DNA of 64,000 nucleotides from Alphaproteobacteria bacterium. GTDB lineage: Bacteria; Pseudomonadota; Alphaproteobacteria; Rs-D84. A program made the translations under genes and the position numbers. The stretch covers positions 210,165-274,164 of the forward strand of contig JAVBUT010000002.1 in assembly GCA_031555055.1 (NCBI GenBank), read 5' to 3'. Positions within the stretch are counted from its first letter, which is position 1. Each line of letters starts with the position of its first letter. Positions 5,217 to 58,505 of the stretch are shown here, piece by piece. The notes below the pieces were generated by a model. It was not told the DNA's origin. It ran no database searches and was given only the letters and a program-made list of their open reading frames with translations.

Positions 5217-6965
5217 ATGTCAGATAAAGATAAAAAATATCCAATCGAACTGGTGCGTCACAGTCTGGCGCACGTATTGGCGGCGGCGGTTCAGAAACTG
5301 TGGCCGGATGTAAAATTCGCGGGCGGGCCCGATATTGAAAACGGATTCTATTACGATTTTGATACCGATCATCGTTTTTCGGAAAGTGACTTTCCGGCAA
5401 TCGAAAAAGAAATGAAGGCGTTGATCAAATCGGATGGAATGTTCGTTCGCCGTGAAGTCTCGTTACAGGAAGCAAAAGAAATATTTGCGGCCCAACCGTT
5501 TAAAATGGAATGGCTGAACGAATATGACGCGGCAGGTGAAAAATTGTCGATCTATGAATTCCGTGGATTCGTGGACTTGTGCCGTGGGCCGCACGTAGAA
5601 TCATCCAAAGATTTGCCACGCGACGGATTTAAAATCCGCAGCGTTGCCGGTGCATACTGGAAAGGTGATTCCAAAAACAAAATGTTACAGCGTATCTATG
5701 TCGATGCATTTGCGTCCGCCGATGAACTGGACGCGCATCTGAAAATGATGGAAGAGGCCGCCAAGCGCGATCATCGCAAGATTGGCCGTGATATGGACTT
5801 GTTCCATTTCGAACCGGAATACGCGCCGGGCGCCGTGTTCTGGCACGATAAAGGTTATAAGATATATCGCCGTCTGATCGAATATGTGCGTATGCGCCAG
5901 GAAAAAGCCGGCTATTTGGAAATTTCAACCCCGGGGCTGATGGACCGTTCTTTGTGGGAAACGTCAGGCCACTGGGCGAAATATGGCGAACATAATTATT
6001 CCGGCAAGACCGAGGACGGTAAGCAGTTCTGTATAAAGCCGATGTCTTGTCCGGGCGGTATGCTGGTGTTTGGGCATGGTCTGACTTCTTATAAAGACCT
6101 GCCGATGTATGTCGCCGAATTCGGAAAAGTTCATCGGTACGAAGCCGCCGGTGGCTTGCACGGTATCATGCGTGTGCGCGAATTCACCCAAGATGATGCG
6201 CATATATTCTGTACGGAAAACCAGCTGGAAGATGAAGTTGTAAAGATTCTGCGCTTTATCAAAGATATTTATGGCAAATTCGGGTTCAAAAACGTCACCA
6301 TGAAACTGGCGACGCGCAAAGAATCGGAATTCCGTATCGGATCGGATGAAATATGGGATCGCGCCGAAGCCGCGCTTAGAAACGCGCTGGATAAAAACGG
6401 TATTGAATACGAAATCGCCGTTGGTGACGCCGCTTTTTATGGGCCCAAGATTGACAACTATCTGCGCGATTCGATCGGCCGCGTATGGCAGTGCGGAACA
6501 GTCCAGCTGGATATGAATCTGCCGGAACGCTTTGACTTGTCCTATATCGGCGAAGATGGTGAAAAGCACCGTCCGATTATGTTGCATCGTGCAATGCTGG
6601 GGTCGATTGAACGTTTTATGGGGATATTGCTGGAAGAGACCGGTGGAAACCTGCCGCTGTGGCTGTCGCCGGAACCGGTGGTCGTAACCCCGATTTCCGA
6701 AAAGTACAAAGACTATGCGGTCGAAGTGTACGACATGCTGCGTCATGCGGGCGTTTATGCGGGCCGCGATTTGCGCGACGAAAAAGTCAATTACAAGATT
6801 CGCGAACTGTCGCTGGCCAAGACGCCGATCATCGCAGTCGTAGGCGAGAAAGAGCAGGCGGATAAAACCGTAACTTTGCGCTGGCTGGGGTCTGATCAGC
6901 AAGACACAATGTCGCTGGATAAATTCATCGACATGATGAAGTCCGCAGTCCAAATGCCAGAATAA
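5217..6965 (+). CDS. thrS: threonine--tRNA ligase, apparently lacking the N-terminal TGS domain
   Basis: Begins at the editing-domain motif RHSLAHVLAAAVQKLWP and GFYYDFD. Class II catalytic and anticodon-binding regions follow. 582 aa versus about 640 in canonical ThrRS. Confidence 0.9.
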   Translation: MSDKDKKYPIELVRHSLAHVLAAAVQKLWPDVKFAGGPDIENGFYYDFDTDHRFSESDFPAIEKEMKALIKSDGMFVRREVSLQEAKEIFAAQPFKMEWLNEYDAAGEKLSIYEFRGFVDLCRGPHVESSKDLPRDGFKIRSVAGAYWKGDSKNKMLQRIYVDAFASADELDAHLKMMEEAAKRDHRKIGRDMDLFHFEPEYAPGAVFWHDKGYKIYRRLIEYVRMRQEKAGYLEISTPGLMDRSLWETSGHWAKYGEHNYSGKTEDGKQFCIKPMSCPGGMLVFGHGLTSYKDLPMYVAEFGKVHRYEAAGGLHGIMRVREFTQDDAHIFCTENQLEDEVVKILRFIKDIYGKFGFKNVTMKLATRKESEFRIGSDEIWDRAEAALRNALDKNGIEYEIAVGDAAFYGPKIDNYLRDSIGRVWQCGTVQLDMNLPERFDLSYIGEDGEKHRPIMLHRAMLGSIERFMGILLEETGGNLPLWLSPEPVVVTPISEKYKDYAVEVYDMLRHAGVYAGRDLRDEKVNYKIRELSLAKTPIIAVVGEKEQADKTVTLRWLGSDQQDTMSLDKFIDMMKSAVQMPE

Positions 6966-7017
6966 ATTGATTTCTGTGACACATAAATCAATTTCTTGAT
7001 CAGATAAAGAAAAGGAA

Positions 7018-7161
7018 ATGAAAATGAATAAATTAACTTTATTGTTCGCATTGTTTGCGGTATTGACTGTTGCGGGTTGCTGTAACTGTGAAAAAGAGCC
7101 GATTGTGGAACAAAATCACAAGCTGATCGTTCCGCCGAACTTTGGCAACCAACCAAAGTAA
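7018..7161 (+). CDS. small putative lipoprotein (47 aa, lipobox LTVAGC)
   Basis: Sequence MKMNKLTLLFALFAVLTVAGCCNCEK... preceded by GAAAGGAAATG. Below the ORF-track size cutoff. Confidence 0.4.
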   Translation: MKMNKLTLLFALFAVLTVAGCCNCEKEPIVEQNHKLIVPPNFGNQPK

Positions 7162-13840: not shown

Positions 13841-15607
13841 TTGAGAAAGATAGTAGAAAGATCCATGCTGGGCAAAGCGTGGGTTTGCGCGACAGAGTAT
13901 GAAGAAAACACGCCCAGCAGTACGATTTTAAAAGAAGACTTGTTAAAGAAAATATTGGAATCGCGCGGCGTTCGTAGCGGGGTCGATACCAGCAAGTTTT
14001 TAAATCCCAGCATAAAAGAATACATGCCCGACCCCAGCGTGCTGGCCGATATGGATTCGGCGGCGCGTATAATTGTCGACAATATTGTCGCCGGGCGGAA
14101 AATTGCCATATACGGCGACTATGACGTGGACGGAATAACGTCCAGTGCGATCATGGTGAAATATCTGCGTGCGGTTGGCGCAAACGTCGTATGGCACCTG
14201 CCAACGCGCGAAGGCGAAGGGTATGGTCTGAACTGTGATGCCGTCAGTGCGATCGCCGCGGACGGGGTCAATCTGATCGTGACCGTCGATTGCGGAATCA
14301 GCGGCGTGGAAGAAATTGCGCTGGCTAAAAAACTGGGGCTGGATGTCGTTGTTACCGATCATCATTCGCCTGACGGGAATCTGCCGGCGGCCGACGCGGT
14401 CGTGAATCCCAAACGCCTGGACGATACGTCCGGGATGTCTTATCTGGCGGGTGTCGGCGTGGCTTTTATGACACTGGTCGCCGTGAATAGAGAACTGAAG
14501 TCCAGAAATGACGATAAATTCCAAATTCCGCATTCTTTATTTTTGATCGATCTGATGGATTTGGTCGCGCTGGGGACGATATGCGACACAATGCCGTTGG
14601 TGGGACTGAATCGTGCGTTTGCTGCGACCGGCCTGAAAGTTCTGGCCAAGCGAAACAATGTCGGCCTGCGCGCGTTGATGGATATTGCAGTAATTAAATA
14701 GCAGACCAAATACAGCGTGATGTTCGCGCTGGGGCCGCGGTTGAATGCGGCGGGCCGTCTGGATTCTGCGGCGCCGGCGCTGGAACTGTTGTTGACGGAC
14801 AATATACTGGTCGCGAACGATCTGGCGGCAAAATTAAACCGCATGAACCAGGAACGCATAGATGTTCAAAATGCAATCATGATAAGTGCGACCGAAATGG
14901 CCCAGAAATGTTGCGCTTTGGGAAAATGCAGCCTGTTCGTATGTGGCGATAACTGGCGCACTGGGGTTATGGGGATCATCGCCGGGCGGCTGAAAGACAA
15001 ATATAACCTGCCGACATGTGTTGCGACGAAATGCGACGGCGTGATTGACGGGTCCGGCCGTTCTATACCGGGCGTCGATCTGGGGCGCATTGTCCATGAT
15101 GCGGCGGCATTGGGAATAATCAGCGGCGGCGGCGGCCATGCGGCGGCGGCCGGGTTTACTTTGCCGGCAGAGAATGAACAGAAATTCTGCGAATTTTTGG
15201 AAAAATCCGTCTTGGCGCAGTTGGATGGGAAAATTCCGGAAAACGAAACGGTTGTTGATGCCGAAATGGATGCCGGTGGCGCAACGATGAAGCTGGTGGA
15301 ACAACTGGCGGAACTGGAACCGTTCGGCCAGGCCAATCCGGAACCGACACTGGTACTGCGTGGCGGGACATTGGCCCACGCGACGATAATGGGCAAGGGC
15401 GGAACGCACTTGCGCGGATATATCAATACAGGCAACGGATCGCGCCTGGCGTTTGTGGGATTTAATATGGTCGGGACGCCGGTCGGTGATTTTTTGCTGG
15501 ACGATGCGCATACAAATACTAAAATGATGATGTTGGGAAAGTTAAAGGAAAACGAATACCAAGGCCGCGTATCGGCACAGTTCATTTTGGAAGACTTGGC
15601 AATTTAA
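13841..15607 (+). pseudogene. recJ: recJ single-stranded-DNA exonuclease interrupted by an in-frame TAG at 14699-14701 (two ORFs 13841-14701 and 14717-15607 in the same frame)
   Basis: DHH motifs (YGDYDVDG, DHH) in the first part. Conserved FALGPRLNAAGRL and DHHA1 region in the second part. The frames are identical and separated by a single amber codon. Confidence 0.6.
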
Positions 15608-20349: not shown

Positions 20350-20518
20350 TTGCCGGGCCTAGTCGTTATGTTTCGATTATAAAACGACAGGGCCCATTGT
20401 AATAGCGTGTATCACAAGCATTGCGGGCCCCGTCATTCCTCTCTCTCCTGCGCCGGTGTGGCGGCATGGAAAGAATAGCCCGCATATTTAAAAAAATCCA
20501 TAGGAACAAAAGCAGATA

Positions 20519-21082
20519 TCAGTTGCGAAAGTCACAGTCAATCAGATGATCATTCACATATCCGGTCGCCTGCAGGTGGGAATAGCATATGACAGTGCCA
20601 AAAAACTTAAACCCGCGCTTTTTCATGTCGTGCGCGATCGTATCTGACAATTCAGAACGTGCAGGGATGTCGGCCAGTGTCTTGATATTGTTTATAATCG
20701 GCTTTCCGTTCGGCAAAAACGATTTTATATAATTACAGAAACTGCCGAATTCTTTTTGCACTTTGATAAAGAGTTTTGCATTATTGATCGTGGCCATGAT
20801 TTTCAGACGGTTGCGAACAATGCCGTCGTCGTTCATCAGGCGCGCGACATCGGAATCAGTGAACTTGGCGACTTTGTCCACGTCAAAATTCGCGAATGCG
20901 CGCCGATAGTTTTCACGCTTGCGCAATATTGTGATCCAGGACAGTCCGGCTTGGGCCGATTCCAGTGTAAGAAATTCAAACATTGTTTTGTCGTCAGTGA
21001 CCAGTTTGCCCCATTCGGTATCGTGATATTTGATATACAGCGGATCATTCCCGCACCATCCACAGCGTTTTGTCTGTTTCAT
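20519..21082 (-). CDS. tag: DNA-3-methyladenine glycosylase I
   Basis: RCGWCGNDPLYIKYHDTEWG and ESAQAGLSWITIL signature. Zinc ligands C..C...H...C present. Confidence 0.85.
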   Translation of the reverse strand: MKQTKRCGWCGNDPLYIKYHDTEWGKLVTDDKTMFEFLTLESAQAGLSWITILRKRENYRRAFANFDVDKVAKFTDSDVARLMNDDGIVRNRLKIMATINNAKLFIKVQKEFGSFCNYIKSFLPNGKPIINNIKTLADIPARSELSDTIAHDMKKRGFKFFGTVICYSHLQATGYVNDHLIDCDFRN

Positions 21083-21145
21083 AATGATTCCTTCTTTATA
21101 ACCCCCAGTATATCAGAAATAAAATGCCCGCAAGGGGCATTTGAT

Positions 21146-21180
21146 TTATGGTGGTGGGGGATATTACACAATTATCGAAC
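21146..21180. repeat. att-like direct repeat R1 (hairpin + ttatggtgg...attatcgaac); copy of R2 at 21781
   Basis: ttatggtggtgggggatattacacaattatcgaac preceded by hairpin aaatgcccgcaaggggcat. Same architecture as the tRNA-Lys 3 prime end plus terminator at 23050-23085. Confidence 0.5.
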
Positions 21181-21269
21181 TTCGCCAAAAGGCTTCGTAC
21201 GACAAGTCGAACTAATTTCCCAAGAAAATTTCTTGGTTTGGTTCATAAAATCAGATAATTTAAAAAAAA

Positions 21270-21719
21270 TTAACCCCGCCCCATACCTTTCCACGCATCG
21301 GCATATTTTTTATTTTTCCATTCTTCAACAGTGTTTCCTGCTTCTAAAAAATTAAACATTTCATATTTTTTCTTTTCAGCCAATTCTTGACTATTTCCAC
21401 CATTATCTACGAAATGATTCAACAATATCATAACATCATTTTCTGGAACATGAAGCGCATACCAAAATACAGATGTATGTCGTTTATTGTCATAACATGG
21501 CATCTTATCACACATTTTACGCCAATTTCTGAAACAACAGGACGAGCAACTGCTAACGCCTATGTTATCATCATTGTCCCACATATTCACAGAAGCGCAA
21601 ACATTGTTTTCAATTGAACGCTCTTTTAAATAAGATGGAATATTTTTCATTTTGCACCTGTTTTTTGAATAATAGTTCGATAATTGATAAAAGACAATAT
21701 TTTTATTAAAACACATCAT
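21270..21719 (-). CDS. hypothetical Cys-rich protein, AT-rich islet gene
   Basis: 149-aa ORF at about 33% GC, between att-like repeats R1 and R2. Confidence 0.4.
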   Translation of the reverse strand: MMCFNKNIVFYQLSNYYSKNRCKMKNIPSYLKERSIENNVCASVNMWDNDDNIGVSSCSSCCFRNWRKMCDKMPCYDNKRHTSVFWYALHVPENDVMILLNHFVDNGGNSQELAEKKKYEMFNFLEAGNTVEEWKNKKYADAWKGMGRG

Positions 21720-21780
21720 CTAACCGGTCAAAGAGCGTGCGAATACAAAGAAAAACGCACCCGTAACAGGTGCGTGTGTT

Positions 21781-21821
21781 TTATGGTGGGGGATATTACA
21801 CAATTATCGAACTAATTTCCC
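21781..21821. repeat. att-like direct repeat R2
   Basis: ttatggtgggggatattacacaattatcgaactaatttccc preceded by hairpin aaacgcacccgtaacaggtgcgt. Confidence 0.5.
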
Positions 21822-21893
21822 GGGTGAGTTTGTTGAATTAGTAAGAAAGATATAAAACTTTATAAATAAAAATTAATATGTTACAATTCAATC

Positions 21894-22973
21894 ATGATTC
21901 TTCTAGACTATAATATTCTTGAACAAAAGAAAAACACTTTGGATAAAAAAGTGTTCAAAAAATTACAAAAGAAAGCGGATGAAGCACTATATGCTAAAAA
22001 TGAAACGATTTTAGATTTTCCAGGCTTTCCGAAAGATAAAAAAGATTATTATAGCCTGGCTGCGTATTATCATAAATCACCAGACGGAAAATACATTAAG
22101 CATGATGGTATATATAACCAAGAATCACGTAATGGCCCCAAGGATGTTATGTCGCGATTAACGGATGATGTATTGATTCTTGCTTTGGCTGGGTACTTTA
22201 TTGATAAAAAATATTCCGCACGTGCCGCAGAACGCCTTTCTGCTTGGTTTTTGAGCCCAAACGGCATGAATCCAAACTTAATCTATGCCCAGGCCATACC
22301 GGGCAATGATATTGGACGTCCTGCTGGAATTATTGATGCTCATCACTGGATAAATATTATAACGGCGATTGATTTAATTGAACTTGTAATAACAGATAAT
22401 AAATTTCTGACAGAAATGAAAGAGTGGTTTGGTAAATTTGCGGATTGGTTGCATACCAGTGATAATGCCAATAATGTCCGTGAAATCGGAAATAATATTA
22501 ACGCGTGGAGAAATACGGCAACGCTTGTATTTGCATTATTTGCTGGTAATCGGGATAAAATTGTTAATAAATGTTATGATGAATTTAAAGATATATTAGA
22601 ATCAAAGACTGATGAACAAGGGTGCTTTGTTAGTGAATTAGATAGAACAAGATCATTACACTATAACCTATTTTTTCTTGACGCTATGGCCGTTGCGGCC
22701 GAGGCAGCATACAATCAAGGTATTGATCTTTGGCACTATTTTTCGCCAACGAAAAAGAACATAGAAAATTCATTTGATTTTCTGGGGCAATTTTTGATGG
22801 GCAAACCATGGCCGTATCCACAAATGACGGAAGAGTTTAAGAAACGAAATTCTTTTTATATTGCTGCGGTTCGCTTGAATCGACCCGATTTTATAGATAT
22901 TAATCAAGGGCTTGTGGATAATACTTGGCACGCGCACCTTGGTCCAGCTTGGCTATGGCATGGCGAACATTAG
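21894..22973 (+). CDS. polysaccharide-lyase-like protein (alginate lyase / heparinase II/III-like fold), AT-rich islet gene
   Basis: 359 aa. Motif region RSLHYNLFFLDAMAVAAEAAYNQGIDLW resembles the alginate-lyase NNHSYW core. About 34% GC. Adjacent to tRNA-Lys. Confidence 0.4.
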   Translation: MILLDYNILEQKKNTLDKKVFKKLQKKADEALYAKNETILDFPGFPKDKKDYYSLAAYYHKSPDGKYIKHDGIYNQESRNGPKDVMSRLTDDVLILALAGYFIDKKYSARAAERLSAWFLSPNGMNPNLIYAQAIPGNDIGRPAGIIDAHHWINIITAIDLIELVITDNKFLTEMKEWFGKFADWLHTSDNANNVREIGNNINAWRNTATLVFALFAGNRDKIVNKCYDEFKDILESKTDEQGCFVSELDRTRSLHYNLFFLDAMAVAAEAAYNQGIDLWHYFSPTKKNIENSFDFLGQFLMGKPWPYPQMTEEFKKRNSFYIAAVRLNRPDFIDINQGLVDNTWHAHLGPAWLWHGEH

Positions 22974-23080
22974 TTCGATAATGGATGATTTTTGGTGTTT
23001 TTGGAAAAACACATAATCGAACTCACCCAAGAGCATGTAAATCCAAAGAAAACCGCCCTTTGCGGGCGGTCAGTGTTTCA

Positions 23081-24600: not shown

Positions 24601-26163
24601 ATGAGAAATTTAGTCGTATTTTTATTAATGATGACCGTGGGCTTTGGCGCGCCGGCCAATCAGCCGGTTTATATCGATTCGATTATCGTCGGAAAAAATC
24701 TGGATATATTCGATAACACCGTTATAACAAAACAATCAATAGTTGATGTGGATCGTGTAAATATTATAGACACCGTATATTTGGATAACCGTGGCAATAT
24801 TTATGGCGATATTTTTATCCGGGACGGATATATGCTGACACTGCGCAACAGCGGTATGATTTCCGGGGCTGTGCATACCGGTGAAAATTCGCATCTGGTC
24901 CAGGTGATAAAAACACAGAACGACATTACACAGCTTAATGCGCCTGATTCCGGTTTTTCAATATTGGTGCAGAATAAAGAGCCGCTAAAACTGTCCGACA
25001 TTATCGGGATATCTGTCGGTGCGGATCGGATAGTCTTGGACGGTGCATCCATATTTATTTCGCCGGCGCCGATCGCCAAGACATTGCGCGCAACGGCGGA
25101 ACCGAATATAGAACTGGTCGGCGAAACAATTGTTAAAATCCCAAATGCCAAAAACATGGATGGCAAAATGATCCTGTCAAATGTATCCGGCGATGGCGTG
25201 ATTCTGGTACAGGATACAGGCCTGGGGCCTTTGTACGCGGCGACGGCGGTTCGTCGTGAAGACGGGATATATCTGCATGTTGCGCGCGAAACAGATTATG
25301 GCAAAATACTGGGCGCGGGGCGTGGCGCATTTATAGATAAATTGCGTAATATTGATCCGGAAAATAAAACGATATTGGCGCTGGATCGTGCGGCCGATAT
25401 GAATGAATTTCAAAGATTCGCCGCGTCATCCGCCTTGCTGAATCCGATAAATTTGATACGTCCGGTGAAAATATTTAACAAGTTCGAAACATCCGGATTT
25501 TTATCCATGGACGAAGTATCCGGATTGGAACCAATTTGTATAACATCCGACTGGTTGGATTTGTACGCCGCGAAATTACGCGCAGCTTTTAATATCGATA
25601 ATTTCAATATCGCTGTGAACGCCTATGCCGGCGGTTTTGATTCCAATACCGATCTGGATAGTTTTTCAGGTAATTTTTACGGTGGAAATATTGATTTTAT
25701 ATTTTCATACAAATCCTTGTGGATAGACTCTGGTCTGGGGTTCACGGTATCAAGATTTGAAACTGGCGCAATATTTGACGGTAATGATTTCGTATATGAT
25801 CCCAGCGGGATTTCAATTTACGGCGTGGCGGATATCGGGTACAGGTTTGATTTAAATAATGATTTTTATGTATCGCCGTTTGTCGGTTTTGGCGCGGAAT
25901 ATGATTCTGTTTTGTATCAAGACGACACATCGGTATTTGCGCGCGCGGGCGCATATGCCGGATACTCATTCAATGAAATCGGAATCAAATACGATTATCA
26001 TATTTTTGCAATGGCGCAAACGGACGAAACGGTCATGACCGGAATTAGAATGAGTTTCTGGTCTGTCGTCGACCGCATGGGCGGCGATATTTCGTATGCA
26101 ATATCAGATGACGAAGTTGGGATTTCGCATAAATTTTCTGCCGGAATCAGATTTATGTTTTAA
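24601..26163 (+). CDS. outer-membrane protein with autotransporter-like C-terminal beta-barrel domain
   Basis: Signal peptide. C-terminal about 250 aa show alternating aromatic/hydrophobic beta-strand pattern ending in the terminal F (SAGIRFMF). Confidence 0.5.
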   Translation: MRNLVVFLLMMTVGFGAPANQPVYIDSIIVGKNLDIFDNTVITKQSIVDVDRVNIIDTVYLDNRGNIYGDIFIRDGYMLTLRNSGMISGAVHTGENSHLVQVIKTQNDITQLNAPDSGFSILVQNKEPLKLSDIIGISVGADRIVLDGASIFISPAPIAKTLRATAEPNIELVGETIVKIPNAKNMDGKMILSNVSGDGVILVQDTGLGPLYAATAVRREDGIYLHVARETDYGKILGAGRGAFIDKLRNIDPENKTILALDRAADMNEFQRFAASSALLNPINLIRPVKIFNKFETSGFLSMDEVSGLEPICITSDWLDLYAAKLRAAFNIDNFNIAVNAYAGGFDSNTDLDSFSGNFYGGNIDFIFSYKSLWIDSGLGFTVSRFETGAIFDGNDFVYDPSGISIYGVADIGYRFDLNNDFYVSPFVGFGAEYDSVLYQDDTSVFARAGAYAGYSFNEIGIKYDYHIFAMAQTDETVMTGIRMSFWSVVDRMGGDISYAISDDEVGISHKFSAGIRFMF

Positions 26164-37809: not shown

Positions 37810-39150
37810 TTAAACTGATTCCTGGTTACTTAATGCCATTTTTATAAGTTGTTTGGATTCCACCAAAAATTCCATCGGCAGGCGCGATATGATCGGCGCC
37901 GCCAGGCCGCCTATGATCAGTGCGGTCGCTTCGTCTTCGGGAATGCCACCCTGTGCCAGATAGAGCAGGGCCGCCGCGTCGATCGCGCCGGTCTTGGCTT
38001 CGTGGCTTTGATCGTTTTCGCCATTGTTGTGAACGATTGTCGGCAGTGTGTTCGCAACCGCCGTATCGCCGATAATTCGGCTGTCGCACTTTGACGCGTT
38101 CATGCCGCGAATGCCATTAAACTGAACACGTGATCGGAATGTCTGGACTGATTCTTCCAGTGCGACACCGTATGACACGATATTCGATACTGTGTCGTCG
38201 CCGATATGAATCATTTTTGTGCCGGTATCGGCCTGTTGATTTCCGCGCGTTATTGTTAGTGAGTAAAAGTCGCTATGTGCATGGTTTCCGCGCAAAATTG
38301 TGGATGGATATTTCCATGTCATGGCACTGCCAACTTCTACCTGGGTCCAATATACTTTTGCATTTTCATGTGCGATTGCGCGCTTGGTGACAAAGTTCAG
38401 GATACCGCCACGCTGCGCGCCGTGATTCGAATATTCTCCGGCGTACCAATTCTGAACTGTGGCGTATTTTACGATTGCGTTGTCCAGTGCGATGACTTCG
38501 ACGACGCCACTGTGCAGCTGGTGGTTTGGTCTGCGCGGTGCGCTGCACCCTTCGAGATAAGATAATTCCGCGCCGGTGTCTGCCACGATCAATGTGCGTT
38601 CAAATTGTCCGATCTTGGCGGTTTCGATTCTGAAATAGCTGGCCAGATCAATCGGGCATTTTGTGTTTTTCGGAATATAAACAAATGTGCCGTCGGAAAA
38701 CACCGCCGCGTTCAGTGCTGCGAAAAAGTTATCAGAGGCCCCCACAACAGTGCCCAGATATTTTTTTACCATGTCGGGATGCTTTTCGACCGCTTCGGAA
38801 AAAGGCAGAAAAATTATCCCCAACTTTTCCAATTCCGCAGTGTACGACGTATGTACGGATCGGCTGTCGATCACGGTGTCTGTCGCCATTCCCATCAGTG
38901 CGCGCTGTTCGCTTTCGGGCAGACCCATTTTTTCGTATGTTTTTTTCAGATCGGAATTGTCGATCAGTGCGGGCTCTTTATAATAATTCAAAGAATCATA
39001 ATCGATCGGATCGTAATTTATTTTTGCCCAATGTGGCTCTTTCATTTTTGACCAGGCGTCAAACGCGGCCAGACGCCATTCGGTCAGCCACGATGGCTCT
39101 TTACGTTTTTTAGAAATATCACGAATAAGATCAGCGTTTAGCTTTTTCAT
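37810..39150 (-). CDS. sufB: Fe-S cluster assembly protein SufB
   Basis: SufB/SufD beta-helix family with SufB-specific LEGCSAP motif. 446 aa. No sufD follows. Confidence 0.8.
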   Translation of the reverse strand: MKKLNADLIRDISKKRKEPSWLTEWRLAAFDAWSKMKEPHWAKINYDPIDYDSLNYYKEPALIDNSDLKKTYEKMGLPESEQRALMGMATDTVIDSRSVHTSYTAELEKLGIIFLPFSEAVEKHPDMVKKYLGTVVGASDNFFAALNAAVFSDGTFVYIPKNTKCPIDLASYFRIETAKIGQFERTLIVADTGAELSYLEGCSAPRRPNHQLHSGVVEVIALDNAIVKYATVQNWYAGEYSNHGAQRGGILNFVTKRAIAHENAKVYWTQVEVGSAMTWKYPSTILRGNHAHSDFYSLTITRGNQQADTGTKMIHIGDDTVSNIVSYGVALEESVQTFRSRVQFNGIRGMNASKCDSRIIGDTAVANTLPTIVHNNGENDQSHEAKTGAIDAAALLYLAQGGIPEDEATALIIGGLAAPIISRLPMEFLVESKQLIKMALSNQESV

Positions 39151-39683
39151 TCCTGGTTCGCTAATAGTTTCGCCTGTTCAAAGAATGTCAATGATTGCCC
39201 CAGCAGACCGTCGGTAAATGTCGCACCCAAAATTCCGTCAGGTTCGTTAATTGTAATATGATGTAAAAATCCGTCCGCCCGACGCAGATAGTTTTCGACG
39301 CTGCGTGCGACTTCGGGGTCCAGCTTGATCGCGCGGCGCAGTTTCTCCAGCGCAAAGGGATTCTTGGCGTATTCGTCCATGATCCCGCCCAGCGCCCGCC
39401 ACAGCGGATGTTCGGCCGTGTTGCGCGGCATGATGTCGATCGCCGCCATGACCGGAATCAGATTCTGCAACAGGTCCTGATAGATCATCTCTGCGTTTTC
39501 AGTGACAACATTCGTTGCGTGTTTGTTTTTTAAAACGGTTTGCATTTTCACCATCAGTGCGTACTGGTGCGACAGTGTTTTCGATATTTCCTTGGTCTTG
39601 GAATACATGACGAACATAAAATACGCCATGACAATCAGAGACAATGCGAAAACAATAAAAAAAGAAAAAGTTAGACTGAACAT
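39147..39683 (-). CDS. hypothetical membrane-anchored protein upstream of sufB
   Basis: N-terminal TM helix. 178 aa. Start overlaps the sufB operon start region. Confidence 0.4.
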   Translation of the reverse strand: MFSLTFSFFIVFALSLIVMAYFMFVMYSKTKEISKTLSHQYALMVKMQTVLKNKHATNVVTENAEMIYQDLLQNLIPVMAAIDIMPRNTAEHPLWRALGGIMDEYAKNPFALEKLRRAIKLDPEVARSVENYLRRADGFLHHITINEPDGILGATFTDGLLGQSLTFFEQAKLLANQE

Positions 39684-39839
39684 ATTAAATACTCCCGCTG
39701 GTTATAAGTCACTGATCACTATAACATCTTTTTTTCCGATTCGCGATGCTTGGGTTTGGTGTTTTTAGCCCTTGCACAGATTCGGTCAACTTGTTATAAT
39801 ATTTCCATAATAAGAGAAAAAACAGTAAAGGAAGCCCCT

Positions 39840-40739
39840 ATGTTTCGTAAAATTTTGATGGCCGCAATGTTCGCAACAGCCGCAGGATACTGCTTTGCGG
39901 CGGATACCGGACTGCCCCAGGTCGTCACATCCGAAGTGTTTTATACCCAAGAAAAATCCGTAAACGAAAACACAGATTATAACACCTATGAAACAAACTA
40001 TGTCGCGCCGGCACCACACGCAGTGCCGACATGGCCGATCGTTGGCACGGACGCGGACACCGCTGTTTCTTGCGGTGCGGGCGGAAATACGGGCGGATGC
40101 GCTGATGACAATATAAAAATAGTTTCTAAAATCGGCGCCGATCTGGTTGTTGAAAATAATTTTAACTTGGGCGGTCACCGCGGTAATGGTGATGGCTGGT
40201 CTGGCGGGGCGAACATGCTGCACGGATTACAAGTGCCGGCCGGATTCGACGACGAATGCAATTCCAGATCGGAAATGCCGCTGATGGGTCGTGAAATGCT
40301 GGAAGACGACGGTGGTGAAGTTCTTGCCGTATCGCGCAGTGCACGCAAAAAATGCGGCAATGCTGGTTCCAATGGGGGTGGCATGACGGGCAAAATGATA
40401 ATCGAAGAAGAAAAAGTAACGGATTACATGGAAATTGCGGTTGATCAGTCCGCCGACGCCGAAGCGCCAAAAGCAATGCAGGACCAGGTTCGTTCATGGG
40501 TTGTGGCATCTGGTCAGACGTTGCGCGAAGTTTTGCAAAACTGGTGCGACAAAGAAGGTTGGGACCTGGTTTGGGCGACACCGCGCGAATACCCGATAGA
40601 GGCCAGCGCCGTATTCAAAGGACGTTTTGTTGATGTGTCCAGTGCACTGGTTCGCAACTTTGGTCGCGCAACACCGGTGCCGTATGCGAAATTCTATAAG
40701 GGAAACCGCGTGCTGGTCGTGTCTACAACCGAAGAATAA
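39840..40739 (+). CDS. TcpQ/PilL-like (type IVb pilus secretin partner) exported protein
   Basis: Signal peptide. C-terminal GQTLREVLQNWCDKEGWDLVW...KFYKGNRVLVVS matches the TcpQ/PilL C-domain pattern (…TLR..L..W...AGW…FY.NRVL.V). Confidence 0.5.
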   Translation: MFRKILMAAMFATAAGYCFAADTGLPQVVTSEVFYTQEKSVNENTDYNTYETNYVAPAPHAVPTWPIVGTDADTAVSCGAGGNTGGCADDNIKIVSKIGADLVVENNFNLGGHRGNGDGWSGGANMLHGLQVPAGFDDECNSRSEMPLMGREMLEDDGGEVLAVSRSARKKCGNAGSNGGGMTGKMIIEEEKVTDYMEIAVDQSADAEAPKAMQDQVRSWVVASGQTLREVLQNWCDKEGWDLVWATPREYPIEASAVFKGRFVDVSSALVRNFGRATPVPYAKFYKGNRVLVVSTTEE

Positions 40740-40743
40740 ATTA

Positions 40744-40773
40744 AATGAAAAATGAAAAATGAAAAGTGAAAAA
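40744..40773. repeat. ATGAAAA-type heptamer array between the TcpQ-like gene and the secretin gene
   Basis: aatgaaaaatgaaaaatgaaaagtgaaaaa. Confidence 0.55.
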
Positions 40774-40828
40774 TAATTCCTTGGTCATTGCATTTTTCCA
40801 AAGACTTGAAACACATAGGTGAGAGAAT

Positions 40829-42436
40829 ATGTACAAGATATTAAAAGTACTTTTCATTTTTAATTTTTCCTTTTTCATTTTGACTGGGTGCGTAAAGAAG
40901 GAATCCGCCCAGGTGGCGTCCGCCGTCGACCAGGACTTTGTCAATGCGCACGATGCGTTCGAAATGGCGAAAAATCCGCGCGCCAAGGTTACCAGCACCG
41001 ATACCGTGTCAATGTCCGAAGGTGTTTGGCTGGGGGCGAAATCCACTTTGCTGGAACATAAAAACAATTTGCCGGGCACATACGAAAATGACACAGGTGT
41101 GACAATCCTGTTGAATGAGCCCGTATCGTTACAGGTTTTGGCCAACAATATTTCATCCATAACGAATATTCCTGTCAAAATCGACAGCCAGGTAAATACT
41201 GAAAAATTAAAAAAGACCATGAATATTGCCTATACCGGCAAGTTGTCTGGTTTGCTGTCCCAGGTTTCGACAGATCTGGATTTGTTGTGGTATTACGACA
41301 AAAGCTCTATCGTGTTTTATGAAACGGAAACAAAAACATTCACACTGTATGCGCTGGGGACGGATGTCGCGTACCAGTCTGTAATCCGTACGGATGACGG
41401 CAACGGCGTTTCATTGGAATCTAATTTAAAAGAATGGGAAGAAGTCGAACGCACGATCGGATCGATTGTCGGCAAAACAGCGAATGCAAACTTTACCGTA
41501 TCTAAAAGCTTGGGCACGATCACGGTTACCGCGCCGCCTTCGATCCAGCACCGCGTCAGCGAATACATCGCACGCCAGAACAAGCGTTTGTCCCAGCTGG
41601 TGACGATCGACGTAAAGGTTCTGCAGGTGTCCATGAACAACAACACCGCGTTTGGCCTGAACTTGGCGATGGCGATTAATTCTGCGGCGGGTCTGAATAT
41701 CGTTGCGAATCCGAAAAACAATCTGCAAACCACCGAAGCCAGCACAATGAATGTCGCGGTGCTGTCGGGATTGTCATTTGCGGACGCTGCAGGCAAGGTT
41801 CCGGCAGGCGCTACACCGGACCAGATCAATTCGGGCAGTCTGAAAAATATCGCAGGAACTGATGCGCTGATCAGTGCGCTGGCCAAGCAAGGCAAAATAT
41901 CGCTGGTGACGAACGTTGGGGTTACGACACGCAACAACCGCGTCGCCCCGGTCAGCAACACCCGCACAACCGGATATATCAAACGTTTTGAATCACGCAA
42001 TTTTACAACTGTCGAATCCAGCACTGTGGACCAGGATGATTTGGAAACAGGATTCAGCATGCAGCTGTTGCCTAATGTTCTGGAAAATGGAAAAATCTTG
42101 TTACTGTTCAAAATGTCGATTCGTGAACTGTTGCAGATGCAGACGCAGAAAATCGGCGAAGTGACATTGCAGTTGCCAGACGTAGAAGAGCGCAGCTTTA
42201 TGCAGGAAGTAATTATGGAATCCGGCCAAATGCTGGTTCTGTCGGGATTTGAACGTCAGACGAACAATGATACGCGTTATGGCTTGGGCGATCCGGACTT
42301 TATGGCGCTGTCGGGTTCGCGCGAATCCCAATCGACCAAGGACGTTTTGGTTGTCATCCTGACACCGCAAGTACTGGTCAGCCCGATGGATGCAGAGCGG
42401 TCTATCCAGCAAAACTGGGGCGCACCACTAAATTAA
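40829..42436 (+). CDS. lipoprotein secretin (type IVb pilus TcpC/BfpB-like, GspD/PilQ superfamily)
   Basis: Lipobox ILTGC. C-terminal secretin domain with conserved ending ...STKDVLVVILTPQVL. Confidence 0.65.
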   Translation: MYKILKVLFIFNFSFFILTGCVKKESAQVASAVDQDFVNAHDAFEMAKNPRAKVTSTDTVSMSEGVWLGAKSTLLEHKNNLPGTYENDTGVTILLNEPVSLQVLANNISSITNIPVKIDSQVNTEKLKKTMNIAYTGKLSGLLSQVSTDLDLLWYYDKSSIVFYETETKTFTLYALGTDVAYQSVIRTDDGNGVSLESNLKEWEEVERTIGSIVGKTANANFTVSKSLGTITVTAPPSIQHRVSEYIARQNKRLSQLVTIDVKVLQVSMNNNTAFGLNLAMAINSAAGLNIVANPKNNLQTTEASTMNVAVLSGLSFADAAGKVPAGATPDQINSGSLKNIAGTDALISALAKQGKISLVTNVGVTTRNNRVAPVSNTRTTGYIKRFESRNFTTVESSTVDQDDLETGFSMQLLPNVLENGKILLLFKMSIRELLQMQTQKIGEVTLQLPDVEERSFMQEVIMESGQMLVLSGFERQTNNDTRYGLGDPDFMALSGSRESQSTKDVLVVILTPQVLVSPMDAERSIQQNWGAPLN

Positions 42437-42565
42437 AATTAAATACAACAACGCATTTGGCGCGATTTGGGGTGGCTTATGTATGTTCAATACACTACGC
42501 CACCCCAAATCACACCAACTACATCATTCTCTTTAATTTTAACAGCCCGGTTTTGGGCCGTTTTT
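42437..42565 (+). repeat. family-C stop-codon-adjacent element directly 3 prime of the secretin gene
   Basis: taaaattaaatacaacaacgcatttggcgcgatttggggtggcttatgtatgttcaatacactacgccaccccaaatcac...cattctctttaattttaacagcccgg. 93% identical to 63758-63885. Confidence 0.75.
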
Positions 42566-42570
42566 AATTT

Positions 42571-42620
42571 AGTCAATAGTCTTTAGTCACTAGTAGGGGC
42601 GCATATTTGCGCCCGTATGT
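42571..42620. repeat. family-B half element (tagtca repeats + taggggcgcatatttgcgccc hairpin)
   Basis: agtcaatagtctttagtcactagtaggggcgcatatttgcgcccgtatg. Compare 62397-62544. Confidence 0.6.
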
Positions 42621-49303: not shown

Positions 49304-50731
49304 ATGAAGAAATTAGCTGTTTTTTCAGTTTTCTTAGGCGTATTGGGTGTGTTTGGTGCCGGACATGCGAAGTCTTGTACTCTGCAGTCTTGTGATACAA
49401 GTAGCCTTACAGCCGGATGGTTGCGCGCGCAATATCCGGATGGGACCCAGTGTTATTGGTGCGGTGGAGTTTCTTCAAATAATTGTGAAAACGGAACAAA
49501 CGTTGCGGTTATAAATGGTTTGGGCAACATTACCAATATTTACGAATGTGATACAGGTTGGACAAATGGCTGGAGAGAAAATAATCCCGGCAAATTTTGT
49601 AATAATTCGGACTTAAAAGGCGAAAGTTTAAGTTCAATAAAATTAAATAATACGGACATGTATTATAGCTTGGATGGCGGGATAAAAACAACAGGTTATA
49701 TTTCTGGTGATGCGACAGTTCTTAAAGCCGGTAACATAGCTTGCATTGTGGTGAAATGTAAATCAGGATACGAACCGAATGTAGCAAAAACAGCCTGTGT
49801 AGAAGTTGGCCGCGGCAGTTGCGAAGCCAGAACACATATGAAATGGGATGCAGGAAAATGCATTTGTAAAACGCTGGGAGAGGTGGAAACATCCGATAAA
49901 GCAAGATGTGTTGATCCAAAAAAGTTAGCTAAAGAGGAAGAATGCAGAAAGGGTGGCGCAACATTTGATGGCCTAGATGGATGTGTTTGCAAAGACCGTG
50001 CTTTTGGGACAGGACAAGTATGGAACGATACGCAAAAAAAATGCGTATTGTCTGATGAAGAATTAAAAGCACAAAAGGACAAAGCAACAGAAGAACTGGA
50101 AAAGCGCCGCAAAAACTGTACAACAGACAAAGCAAAAGCGTCCGGTGCGTCATGGAATGGGAGAACGTGTCAGTGCGGCGCCACCAAGGGGTGGGTTGAA
50201 TCGCGCGGAGAATGTGTATTGAATGCAAAAGTTGTTGCGTGTAACGCCCTGCGCGATCGTGGTATCAAGGTGGATTGGAGCGAATTGCAGAACGACTGTG
50301 TATGTACAGAAAACGGCTATCGGATGAATGATGCTAAGACGGATTGTATAGAAAGTTCCGACGCAAGACAAGCGCGCGAAGATAAGCAAAAACAAGAAGA
50401 AGCAGACAAGGCGGAAAAGGCACGCTTGGAAATAGAAAGGAGAAGCAAGACAACGATAACAGTTATTACGGATACTTCGAAAAAGTTGACCGATATCGGC
50501 AGTGCCCACTTTGACGTCAGCGCATGGAAAACAGCCGAAGGTACATTTAATACTTCGCGTTTGATTTCGGATTCTGTTGCGGGTGTCGTGCTGGGGACGG
50601 CCGGTGGATTAATCACCAGTAACGTTATCAAAAACAATCAGGTCGACAGCGGATTTGATGATATATCATGTACCGTCGGCGGCCAGGTCGTCGCCGGATG
50701 GGGCGATCAGTTCAGGGTTGGAATAAGATAA
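49304..50731 (+). CDS. secreted Cys-rich repeat protein with central Lys/Glu coiled-coil segment
   Basis: Signal peptide. More than 40 Cys in recurrent C-x-C, W.G..C and G.C.C patterns. No confident family. Confidence 0.45.
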   Translation: MKKLAVFSVFLGVLGVFGAGHAKSCTLQSCDTSSLTAGWLRAQYPDGTQCYWCGGVSSNNCENGTNVAVINGLGNITNIYECDTGWTNGWRENNPGKFCNNSDLKGESLSSIKLNNTDMYYSLDGGIKTTGYISGDATVLKAGNIACIVVKCKSGYEPNVAKTACVEVGRGSCEARTHMKWDAGKCICKTLGEVETSDKARCVDPKKLAKEEECRKGGATFDGLDGCVCKDRAFGTGQVWNDTQKKCVLSDEELKAQKDKATEELEKRRKNCTTDKAKASGASWNGRTCQCGATKGWVESRGECVLNAKVVACNALRDRGIKVDWSELQNDCVCTENGYRMNDAKTDCIESSDARQAREDKQKQEEADKAEKARLEIERRSKTTITVITDTSKKLTDIGSAHFDVSAWKTAEGTFNTSRLISDSVAGVVLGTAGGLITSNVIKNNQVDSGFDDISCTVGGQVVAGWGDQFRVGIR

Positions 50732-51092: not shown

Positions 51093-53069
51093 TTAAATGT
51101 CAAGATCTCTTACAAATTTTGCGTGTTCTGTGATAAAGCGGAATCGGAATTCCGGTTTCTTGCCCATTAATTCGGACACCACGGTTTTGGTGCGTTCTGC
51201 GTCTTCGGCGCCTTCTTCGGTGCGTGGCGGCAGTTCGACGCGGATCAACCGGCGTGTTTTCGGGTTCATTGTCGTTTCTTTCAACTGGTTCGGCATCATT
51301 TCGCCAAGCCCTTTGAATCGCGATATTTCAATTTTTTTGTTTTTATATTTTCCTGCCTTTAATTCTTCCAATTCTTCATCCGTATCGACATATATCGATT
51401 CGGTGCCATGCGTCAATTTATACAGCGGCGGGCATGACAGATACAAGTGTCCGCCATGTATCAGGCCCGGCATGTCGCGATAGAAAAACGTCATCAGCAG
51501 TGCCGCGATATGCGATCCATCGACGTCCGCGTCGGTCATGATTATTATTTTTTCATAACGTAATTTTGATTCGTCCCAATCGCGCGCCGTGCCGGCGCCG
51601 ATGATGTCGATCAATTCGTTCAGTTCTTTGTTCGCGCCGAACTTTTCATCAGAGTTAGAGAACACATTCAAAACTTTTCCGCGCAAAGGCATGATTGCCT
51701 GGGTCGCGCGGTCGCGCGCCTGTTTTGCGGTGCCGCCCGCCGATTCGCCTTCGACGATAAACAGTTCTGTGCCCGCGATTCCATGTTTGGCACAATCGGC
51801 CAGTTTGGCCGGCATGCGTGCGCGTTTGGTCGGCGTCTTGCGCGCGATGTCTTTGACAGCCTTGGTCTTGATACGTGCGTTCGCCAGATTGATCACAAAG
51901 TCCAGCAATGCGTTCGCAGTTTTCGGATCAGACGCCAAGAACATTTCCCATGGATCGCGCAGCGCGTTTTCAGTGTATCGCGCGATTTCCGGGTTGGACA
52001 GTTTTTCCTTGGTCTGGCCCAGGAACTGTGGCGATTTATAGAATACGGAAACAATTGATGCGACCGAATCAAAAACGTCTTCGCTGATGATGTTTGCGGC
52101 GGCCTTGTTATTTATTTTTTCGCCATAGTTTTTAATGCCGCGCGTGATCGCGGATTTAAATCCGCTTTCGTGTGTGCCGCCGTCGATTGTCGCGATCGTG
52201 TTACAGTACGACGCGAAAAAGCCATCGTCGGATGCCGCGCCGTTTTCATCGGTTAAAAATGTCAGTGCCCATTCCACACGGCCAGCATCGTCCGGAAAAT
52301 CAACCATGCCGGAAAATATTTTCGGCAGAATGCGCGGCTTGTCGTTTGTGCGTTCCGCCAAAAAGTCCGCGACGCCATTGGGATAATAAAACTCTGTCTT
52401 GGCCGGGATATTCATATCTTCGGTAATTAATTCCGGATTACAGTTCCATTCGATTTTTACGCCGCGCGACAAGAAAGCCTTGGCCCGCGCCATGCGATAG
52501 ATTTTCACCGGCTTGAACGTTGCATTCGCGCCGAAAATATCGTCGTCCAAAGTAAAGCGGATCGCGGTGCCGTGTCCACGTGTCGCGTCGCCCCGGCTTA
52601 CCGGGCTGGTGGTTTTGCCGCGCGCGAATGTTTGGGTCCAGATGTATCCGTCCTTGGACACTTTGACGGTCATTTCAGACGACAAGGCATTTACGACCGC
52701 GCCGCCGACCCCGTGCAGACCGCCGGATGTTTTATATACGTTATTGTTGAACTTGCCACCCGAATGCAGTGTGGTAAAGATGATCTCCAGCGCGGATTTG
52801 CCAGGATATTTCGGGTGTTCGTCGACCGGGATTCCGCGGCCGTCGTCGATGATTTCAATTGTCTTGGCGTCGATCATGTTTACGACGATTTTCTTGGCAA
52901 AGCCGGCGACGGCTTCATCAATAGAATTGTCCATGATTTCCACAGGCAGGTGGTGCCAAGCCTTTTCATCCGTGCCGCCGATGTACATTCCGGGGCGCAG
53001 ACGCACTGGTTCAAGACCCTCCAAAACTTGGATATCCGATGCAGAATAGTTGTTGTTAGTTTCAGCCAT
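51093..53069 (-). CDS. parE: DNA topoisomerase IV subunit B (GyrB/ParE family; length fits ParE)
   Basis: GHKL ATPase motifs (LEGLEPVRLRPGMYIGGT, GLHGVG), Toprim EGESAGG and PLRGKVLN. 658 aa from ATG at 53067-53069. Confidence 0.75.
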   Translation of the reverse strand: MAETNNNYSASDIQVLEGLEPVRLRPGMYIGGTDEKAWHHLPVEIMDNSIDEAVAGFAKKIVVNMIDAKTIEIIDDGRGIPVDEHPKYPGKSALEIIFTTLHSGGKFNNNVYKTSGGLHGVGGAVVNALSSEMTVKVSKDGYIWTQTFARGKTTSPVSRGDATRGHGTAIRFTLDDDIFGANATFKPVKIYRMARAKAFLSRGVKIEWNCNPELITEDMNIPAKTEFYYPNGVADFLAERTNDKPRILPKIFSGMVDFPDDAGRVEWALTFLTDENGAASDDGFFASYCNTIATIDGGTHESGFKSAITRGIKNYGEKINNKAAANIISEDVFDSVASIVSVFYKSPQFLGQTKEKLSNPEIARYTENALRDPWEMFLASDPKTANALLDFVINLANARIKTKAVKDIARKTPTKRARMPAKLADCAKHGIAGTELFIVEGESAGGTAKQARDRATQAIMPLRGKVLNVFSNSDEKFGANKELNELIDIIGAGTARDWDESKLRYEKIIIMTDADVDGSHIAALLMTFFYRDMPGLIHGGHLYLSCPPLYKLTHGTESIYVDTDEELEELKAGKYKNKKIEISRFKGLGEMMPNQLKETTMNPKTRRLIRVELPPRTEEGAEDAERTKTVVSELMGKKPEFRFRFITEHAKFVRDLDI

Positions 53070-53083
53070 GTTTTTATTCCCGT

Positions 53084-53132
53084 AGGGGCGGCTGGAAAGC
53101 CGCCCAGGGCGCGTTTCCACGCGCCCCTACAA
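53084..53132. repeat. nested taggggcg...cgcccctac palindromic element in the parE 5 prime leader
   Basis: gtaggggcggctggaaagccgcccagggcgcgtttccacgcgcccctac. Confidence 0.6.
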
Positions 53133-58040: not shown

Positions 58041-58505
58041 ATGAAACAAGAGTCCGGAAGATCAATGATCGAAATGCTGGGGGTATTGGCGATTATGGGT
58101 ATCATAACCGTCGGTGCGATCACAATGATTTCATATGCTATGAAAAGCCAGAAACGAACCGCCGTCAACGACGAAGTCACCCAGATGGTGACCGGTGTCC
58201 GCCAATTGCTGGGTGAATATGATGACTTTTCAAACATAAATAATTCTACGATTTTTGGTGCGATCGGGATGTCGCCCAAGAATCCGTATGGCGGAAATTA
58301 CGAGCTGGCGGTGAATCCGTCCAACCCGCGCCAGTTTATCGTTTCTATCAACGGGCTGTCAAAATCCGATTGTGAGTACTTTTTAACCAAAGCGTGGTCC
58401 GATTCTGTCGAATTTCAAATGTCCAGCGGCCAGCGCGGTGGCGCGATCGGGGCCTGTACGGATGAAGCCGGCAGGAACGTGGTCAGAATAATTTACGGGG
58501 AATAG
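58041..58505 (+). CDS. type IV pilin-like protein (short leader, Gly-1, Glu+5, hydrophobic helix, C-terminal disulfide pair)
   Basis: MKQESG|RSMIEMLGVLAIMGIITVGAI resembles the TcpA-type N-terminal helix. Cys pair CEYF...GACTDE. RBS AAGGAAGGAAATATG. Confidence 0.5.
   Translation: MKQESGRSMIEMLGVLAIMGIITVGAITMISYAMKSQKRTAVNDEVTQMVTGVRQLLGEYDDFSNINNSTIFGAIGMSPKNPYGGNYELAVNPSNPRQFIVSINGLSKSDCEYFLTKAWSDSVEFQMSSGQRGGAIGACTDEAGRNVVRIIYGE

Follow-up and report, generated by a model that had tools for sequence, protein, structure and literature searches.

A TcpQ-like protein and a lipoprotein secretin as the probable outer-membrane part of a dispersed type IVb pilus machine in gut Alphaproteobacteria

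A secretin gene that stands with its periplasmic partner gene and has no assembly motor beside it raises the question of whether the pair still serves a pilus, has decayed, or has been taken over for another use. We addressed this question for a stretch of 64,000 nucleotides (nt) from an Alphaproteobacteria bacterium of the Rs-D84 lineage (contig JAVBUT010000002.1, positions 210,165 to 274,164), which we call the window and in which positions are counted from the first letter. A tcpQ-like gene (39840..40739, plus strand), encoding a TcpQ/BfpG/PilL-type secretin partner of 299 amino acids (aa), is followed after 89 nt by the gene for a 535-aa lipoprotein secretin of type IVb (PilN/BfpB-like; 40829..42436, plus strand). 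A preliminary description had called the pair an orphan outer-membrane module and had left it open whether its machinery is scattered or degenerate, or whether the secretin has been co-opted. Our analysis indicates that the pair probably forms the outer-membrane portion of a type IVb pilus machine whose chromosomal genes are dispersed. Judged from the sequences, the module appears to be neither degenerate nor co-opted, and to belong to a split but complete-looking pilus system. Four lines of evidence carry this view: the family identities of the proteins, purifying selection, a contiguous operon in relatives, and split loci on one contig of a close relative.

The family identities of both proteins are clear. 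The 535-aa protein contains a secretin domain (Pfam PF00263) at residues 350-516, with an E value of 3.2e-14 and 53.3 bits against a gathering threshold of 27.5. Its top NCBIfam model is TIGR02520, PilN of type IVB (232.3 bits), followed by MshL with 98 bits, and its nearest solved structure is BfpB (9u5s_A, E 2.1e-35, residues 129-516), followed by InvG (E 0.0019). The protein is laid out as a lipobox (FILTG-C21), an N-terminal linker (about residues 22-128), N0/N3-like periplasmic domains and the secretin domain; Cys21 is invariant in 41 aligned homologues, and lipobox-like motifs are present as well in the secretins of three loci from relatives (L001, L006 and L008). The partner protein carries a TcpQ domain (PF10671) at residues 218-295, with an E value of 1.3e-17 and 64 bits against a cutoff of 27, inside an N0-like region spanning residues 211-297, and in the search against solved structures it matches BfpG, chain R of PDB 9u5s (E 2.1e-14). 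The two window proteins therefore match both chains of one solved complex, and the earlier assignment of a TcpQ/PilL-type C-domain to the first gene and of a lipoprotein with a C-terminal secretin to the second is confirmed. The TcpQ-like protein begins with a signal peptide (MFRKILMAAMFATAAGYCFA, followed by AD) that is not a canonical lipobox, and continues with a Gly-rich extension of about 190 aa without a known domain. PDB 9u5s shows BfpB and BfpG of the E. coli bundle-forming pilus as a 17:17 secretin complex, in which BfpG, a TcpQ homologue with an N0-like fold, is essential for secretin assembly and binds the linker between the lipidated N terminus and the N0 domain of the lipoprotein secretin (PMC12531336).

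The neighbours of the pair in the window are housekeeping genes (gatCAB, ruvX, sufBC, rpsT, plsY, dprA, dnaA, gyrB, dnaJ, uvrC and dnaN), and human-gut relatives (L001-L004) show the same synteny, sufCB-hyp followed by tcpQ-secretin-(variable gene)-rpsT-plsY-x-dprA-dnaA. Between the window and L001 the secretin is 79% identical, which compares with GatB (79%), RpsT (79%), SufB (78%), SufC (71%), DprA (64%), PlsY (63%), GatA (60%) and DnaA (58%); the TcpQ-like protein is 67-69% identical to its orthologue in L001-L004. The nonsynonymous and synonymous divergences (dN and dS) of the secretin are 0.157 and 2.20, a ratio of about 0.07, those of the TcpQ-like protein are 0.232 and 2.29, and the comparison values are 0.174 and 2.23 for SufB and 0.163 and 2.62 for GatB. 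Conservation is uniform across the length of the secretin, including the pre-N0 linker. More than 800 secretin homologues at 76-86% identity were found, without exception in uncultured 'Alphaproteobacteria' or 'Rickettsiales' living in the guts of humans, mice, ruminants and termites; they form one cluster at 50% clustering, and some lie on contigs of 0.85-0.93 Mb. Both the tcpQ-like and the secretin frames are intact in these homologues, with dN/dS of about 0.07-0.10. The pair is thus under purifying selection at the housekeeping level, and it is a notable property of an outer-membrane protein to evolve at the pace of core enzymes.

This rate bears directly on the possibility that the pair is a decaying remnant, or that the secretin has been re-used as a general outer-membrane pore without a pilus machine. 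The absence of motor genes within 64 kb would fit such an explanation, as would the reported absence of standard transporters in the organism (PMC12306168). However, an outer-membrane secretin that evolves like a core enzyme cannot be a remnant, and the low dN/dS and the intact frames effectively refute that version; the suggestion of degenerate machinery is contradicted by the same conservation. As for the pore version, the motor locus and the pilin described below are equally conserved in the same clade, and the regions of the secretin that would dock to a periplasmic machine (linker, N0 and N3) are conserved as well as its pore domain. Taken as a whole, the explanation by decay or re-use is very unlikely.

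The gene neighbourhood also invites a different explanation, namely a machine that serves chiefly as a DNA-uptake (competence) pseudopilus, with the secretin as the DNA entry port in the outer membrane; DNA could then be used as a nucleotide source and for recombination in a cell unable to make nucleotides. In its favour, dprA stands 3.5 kb downstream in the window, one relative (L005) has comEC immediately behind its pilus operon, and nucleotide biosynthesis is reported to be absent in Rs-D84 bacteria (PMC12306168). However, dprA is part of the conserved rpsT-plsY-x-dprA-dnaA housekeeping block and is common in non-competent bacteria, so the earlier proposal of co-option through dprA finds no specific support. 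The comEC adjacency occurs in a single lineage only, and neither comEA nor comEC was seen in the window or in the flanks of the loci of its lineage. Moreover, known competence pili are of the type IVa/Com kind with PilQ-type secretins, rather than BfpB/PilN-type secretins with TcpQ partners. We therefore regard a machine devoted mainly to DNA uptake as unlikely, and return to the dispersed type IVb pilus.

The motor of such a pilus has to be looked for outside the window. A tblastn search with the relatives' proteins found no PilO, PilP, ATPase or platform gene in the 64 kb, and a search for the peptidase motif was empty there too, in agreement with the preliminary description that none of these is nearby. 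The closest secretins outside the clade, at 37-43% identity, head contiguous TcpQ-secretin-PilO-PilP-ATPase-platform operons, which follow the R64 pilL-N-O-P-Q-R order and encode a PilO of PF06864, a PilP-like protein, a GspE/PilB-family ATPase and a T2SSF platform. The contiguous operon is found in L005, L006/L007, L008-L011 and L019/L020, and in L012/L013 too save for an inverted platform segment; in L005 and L006/L007 it sits among chromosomal core genes. When the ATPases of full operons were used as queries, three large groups appeared among the matches listed. Groups 1 and 2 (L008-L016 and L019-L020) comprise full operons of other genera with a guanine-plus-cytosine (GC) content of 31-59%, while group 3 (L017/L018) has the arrangement lpxK-lpxC-small open reading frame (ORF)-PilO-PilP-ATPase-platform, without TcpQ or secretin. 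Amino-acid composition, taken as a GC proxy for choosing the ATPase group, was only roughly useful.

A scan of a species-representative (GTDB) genome collection with a clade-specific ATPase motif gave at least 120 loci. The group-3 ATPase, which is of the Enterousia type, was found at 39 loci or more, including assemblies named Candidatus Enterousia, and in 20 of these loci the visible stretch upstream of PilO reaches 1.5 kb or more and contains no secretin. The L019-type ATPase was found at 74 loci or more. Among the matches listed, 41 of these have PilO in the block, and a secretin is adjacent in 35 of the 41; the remaining 6 show less than 1.5 kb upstream, and in none of the 41 was a stretch of at least 1.5 kb seen to lack a secretin. 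Two termite-gut metagenome-assembled genomes (MAGs), L033 and L051, carry a window-type secretin (62% and 71% identical) that is followed by PilO, PilP, a group-3 ATPase and the platform gene. Since a window-type secretin stands directly upstream of a group-3 motor in both, the two are partners and their contiguity is ancestral, and the operon split appears to have arisen within the Enterousia-type clade. In L051, about 1.6 kb without a long ORF (about 5490-7104) lies between the secretin and PilO, which are contiguous in L033; this gap may mark a halfway state of the split or result from misassembly.

Both parts of the split system are seen on one contig of a close relative. On scaffold_6 (471,205 bp) of the human-gut assembly ERZ28614413 MERR22-1_SAMEA4766018, the motor locus PilO-PilP-ATPase-platform spans about 238.8-243.5 kb, with ATPase P0519 near 240.8 kb. 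TcpQ-secretin (L002) occupies about 354-356.7 kb, with secretin P0018 near 355 kb, some 114 kb from the motor. This secretin is 79% identical to that of the window and lies in the same synteny, and the PilP of the motor locus passes TIGR03021. A wild-mouse species provides an indirect match, in which ATPase P0531 and secretin P0103 each have a longest contig of 286,837 bp. The genomic context of relatives thus shows full operons outside the clade and split loci within it; the machinery is scattered, one of the possibilities first offered, and the word 'orphan' holds for the locus but not for the genome. An arrangement with two paralogous secretin pairs per genome was considered and rejected, as the full-operon loci come from organisms of 33% GC, against 45-46% here.

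The third locus of the system is the pilin gene (58041..58505, plus strand, 154 aa), which is separated from the secretin by 16 kb and flanked by uvrC and a pseudouridine synthase gene. Its product has a 6-aa leader (MKQESG) followed by RSMIEMLGVLAIMG, with Gly-1, Arg+1, Glu+5, a hydrophobic alpha-1 helix and a C-terminal Cys111-Cys139 pair. This N terminus is nearly invariant, and the two cysteines are invariant, in 113 homologues; altogether 831 homologues were found, 69-86% conserved. In L019-type full-operon genomes, the platform gene is followed at a distance of 0.6-0.9 kb by 1-2 pilin genes, and their products share the N terminus SGRSM(V/I)EMLGVLAI with the window pilin while being 30-35% identical overall. 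In the profile searches, where the secretin and TcpQ models scored above their thresholds, the pilin models stayed just below theirs (PF07963, N_methyl, 17.3 against 21.2 bits; TIGR02532, 10.6 against 16.3). No second prepilin-like N terminus is present in the 64-kb window. These features indicate that 58041-58505 encodes a type IV pilin belonging with the tcpQ-secretin system. The pilin N terminus and Cys pair noticed in the preliminary description are real, but its label 'TcpA-like' is too specific for a protein with a 6-aa leader and Arg+1. The pilin would have been relocated to the uvrC/pseudouridine synthase gap in the window clade, leaving the system spread over at least three loci.

The composition of the gene set also distinguishes between kinds of machine. 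The source annotations use the names CpaC, TadA, GspH and PulG, according to which the genes would encode a Tad/Flp pilus or a type II secretion system, and the ATPase indeed matches both GspE and PilB models, at sub-threshold scores. Against these names, PilN/BfpB with TcpQ/BfpG partners give the best matches among both models and structures, and the accessory genes are R64-type PilO (PF06864) and PilP (TIGR03021). There is a single 357-aa T2SSF platform gene and no TadB/TadC pair, the 154-aa pilin with its disulfide-bonded globular domain is not of Flp size, and GspC, GspL, GspM and the five-pseudopilin set are absent from every operon copy. A Tad/Flp pilus or type II secretion system is therefore highly improbable.

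The R64-like composition could be read in yet another way, as a pilus for mating or contact in a conjugation-like type IV secretion system, which in the style of the R64 thin pilus would join the cell to a partner for the transfer of DNA or effectors. Both the genes present and their order correspond to the IncI/R64 pilL-N-O-P-Q-R-S cluster, and the closest plasmid matches are PilN proteins on conjugative plasmids. In addition, L141 and L017 have VirB4/TrbE about 8 kb before PilO, L019 has it directly past the operon, and VirD4/TraG-like and TrbC genes flank the L005 operon. However, PilN of IncI-type conjugative plasmids is only 24-28% identical to the window secretin, and in many species the pilus genes occupy conserved sites among the core chromosomal genes lpxK, lpxC, accA, accD, rpsD, sufBC and dnaA, with no recognisable mobile element. 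A mating pilus seems improbable to us, and it would bear on the downstream use of the pilus, not on the role of the tcpQ-secretin genes.

Two observations concern the surroundings of the motor genes. Type IV secretion system (T4SS) genes of the VirB4/TrbE, VirD4/TraG-like and TrbC-like kinds lie within a few kilobases of the motor genes in several lineages (L141, 1-1787; L017, 1-1426; L019, 13712-16147; L005, 6612-9215), a proximity that recalls the pairing of thin pilus and conjugation system on IncI plasmids. Just 3' of the motor locus stands a gene for a 799-aa GyrB-family protein (L141, 13491-15890; L017, 13729-16128), whose L017 copy is about 40% identical to the product of the 675-aa gyrB of the window (51093-53120); this is presumably the ParE subunit of topoisomerase IV or a paralogue.

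Several points weigh against a type IVb pilus machine served by the window genes. The 232.3 bits of the secretin fall below the TIGR02520 equivalog cutoff of 287.65, and an exact-product look-up of the window secretin matched no record. Its AlphaFold2 model, built with 41 close homologues, has a predicted local distance difference test (pLDDT) score of 43, with only the N0-/N3-like parts reaching about 70-80, and is too poor for testing the architecture. Type IVb pilins as a subclass have a leader of 15-30 aa and a non-aromatic hydrophobic residue at +1; the window pilin, as read from its sequence (MKQESG before RSMIE...), has a leader of 6 aa and Arg at +1 and is in this unlike the classical members. 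The GxGDxK motif of the prepilin peptidase (Peptidase A24) is absent from the window and from all 149 loci, full operons included, and the peptidase must lie elsewhere or be unusual. Finally, the motor locus is seen in close relatives and we infer its presence in the window's own assembly, and the function of the pilus is a presumed one. With these points taken into account, we still consider the dispersed type IVb pilus machine likely.

In such a machine, the TcpQ-type protein would be exported into the periplasm, where, by analogy with BfpB-BfpG, it would ring the N3 domains while bound to the N-terminal linker of the secretin, and would be required for channel assembly; the stoichiometry and binding mode of the two proteins presumably resemble those of that complex. 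A PilO-PilP-ATPase-platform complex, with its genes at another chromosomal site, would polymerise the pilin 58041-58505 at the inner membrane, and the fibre would leave the cell via the 40829-42436 secretin. Adhesion or aggregation is the default role for Bfp/Tcp/R64-type pili, and the most likely role here is that the cells attach to a partner cell or a host surface, or to one another. DNA uptake and T4SS-associated contact are less likely but serious alternatives.

This role gains meaning from the organism. The window probably lies in or next to the Candidatus Enterousia/Rs-D84 group, the genus being our own placement: the relatives with motor genes include assemblies named Candidatus Enterousia and MAG 82_22-119 of the Rs-D84 study. 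The GC content is 46% in the window and 33-47% in named Enterousia-type loci. The Rs-D84 group consists of gut bacteria with genomes below 1 Mb, no respiration and hardly any synthesis of amino acids, nucleotides or lipids, and they are thought to be partner-dependent; the same study mentions type IV pili for a different lineage only (PMC12306168). Bacteria of the Rs-D84/Enterousia type occur widely in the guts of humans, livestock, rodents and termites and have been proposed to live off other cells, and in the literature searched no contact or uptake apparatus has been reported for them. A dispersed type IVb pilus, with a secretin that evolves at the pace of GatB and SufB, is a concrete candidate for that apparatus. 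The kind of machine is already known; what stands out is that a type IVb pilus appears to belong to the slowly evolving core of an abundant gut lineage that is uncultured and partner-dependent. More speculatively, and with clearly less confidence than we place in the pilus itself, the type IVb pilus might be the organelle by which these sub-1-Mb, transporter-poor and biosynthetically crippled alphaproteobacteria attach to and exploit a partner cell, and it may work with the neighbouring T4SS genes and the strain-variable Cys-rich proteins beside the secretin. If true, this rather unlikely idea would supply a proteobacterial counterpart to the pilus-dependent episymbiosis of Saccharibacteria, and the housekeeping-level conservation of the secretin would reflect an essential lifestyle role. 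The pilin and the secretin also offer handles for antibodies, for cryo-electron tomography guided by fluorescence in situ hybridization, and for enrichment. For annotation there is a caution: the 'orphan' secretin here reflects operon fission, not loss, and the names CpaC, TadA and GspH indicate the wrong machine.

The immediate surroundings of the pair were also described. As the start of the tcpQ-like gene, ATG 39840 is favoured over the upstream TTG 39750, because a ribosome-binding site (AAGGAAG, about 39829-39835, plus strand) and a promoter-like site precede it; this start agrees with the 302-aa product in relatives. The promoter-like site is of the sigma-70 type (39773..39800, plus strand), with TGCACA, 16 nt and a TG-extended TATAAT, about 40 nt 5' of the start, and two terminator-like hairpins with T-runs (42545..42614, plus strand) lie 110-180 nt past the secretin stop. 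Both came from consensus scans in which the counts of promoter-like and terminator-like sites in the region are not above chance (for promoters, the shuffled expectation), so that these sites rest on position only. Flanked by them, tcpQ and the secretin gene look like a self-contained two-gene unit. Upstream and divergent from the tcpQ-like gene, 39147-39683 (minus strand) encodes a 178-aa single-pass membrane protein without a family match, which is 66% conserved and heads the sufBC unit in relatives. It was rejected as a pilus component, since it overlaps the sufB start codon by 4 nt and is part of the suf transcription unit, where it may act as a lineage-specific accessory to Suf.

On the other side of the pair, the slot after the secretin is variable. 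In the human-gut relative, it holds a copy of a Cys-rich signal-peptide family (27-36 cysteines, a conserved C-terminal module of about 80 aa, no Pfam match) directly 3' of the secretin, with lengths of 434, 502 and 592 aa among strains with identical secretin. In the window two small ORFs fill this slot and the Cys-rich member sits after dnaA (49304-50731); the members in relatives are at L001 11685-13463 and 18570-19451, L002 12060-13364 and L004 11854-13362. Type IVb systems export factors, such as TcpF, and the Cys-rich family could be variable surface or secreted proteins. A 520-aa protein at 24601-26163, with a weak autotransporter beta-domain (PF03797, 22 bits, below cutoff), may be a further surface protein. 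Elsewhere in the window, recJ (13841-15607) contains an in-frame TAG at 14699-14701, after which the same frame resumes from 14717; a sequencing error, a pseudogene or read-through could each account for this. The region of about 20500-23000 has 36-42% GC, against about 47% elsewhere, and holds an alginate-lyase family gene (21894-22973; PF05426, E 3.5e-50), unexpected where carbohydrate metabolism is nearly absent, which may have been acquired horizontally.

By comparing the window genes with known systems, we found the closest structural likeness in BfpB-BfpG of enteropathogenic E. coli, which likewise pairs a lipoprotein secretin with a small periplasmic N0-like partner and has neither a separate pilotin nor an S-domain match. 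The Bfp system differs in being encoded by a plasmid-borne 14-gene bfp operon with the BfpP peptidase and the BfpF retraction ATPase. BfpG has 114 aa, whereas the window partner, with its N-terminal extension, has 299, two to three times the length of BfpG or TcpQ; the BfpB alignment begins at secretin residue 129, and the partner-binding linker is not alignable. The toxin-coregulated pilus of Vibrio cholerae also has a lipoprotein secretin, TcpC, with a TcpQ partner needed for its stability, and this pair is the founding member of PF10671. The tcp genes differ in forming a pathogenicity-island operon with the TcpJ peptidase, and the pilin TcpA, with a 25-aa leader and a hydrophobic +1 residue, is unlike the window pilin. 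In gene families and order, the window's relatives resemble the R64 thin pilus (IncI1, pilK-pilV) and the pilL-pilV clusters of integrative elements, sharing the succession PilL/TcpQ, PilN, PilO, PilP, ATPase (R64 PilQ), platform (R64 PilR) and pilin. In the window clade no PilU peptidase, PilV adhesin or shufflon of the R64 type was seen, and the genes are chromosomal, core and split into at least three loci. Counterparts of the whole system are those of other uncultured gut Alphaproteobacteria (for instance CAG:495 and CAG:977 assemblies; L035, L049 and L019), which have homologous TcpQ, secretin, PilO, PilP, ATPase, platform and pilin genes, the pilins carrying the GRSM(V/I)EMLGVLAI N terminus as in the window. 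Their secretins are 34-42% identical to that of the window and their genes are contiguous, whereas in the window clade the outer-membrane pair and the pilin stand apart from the motor genes.

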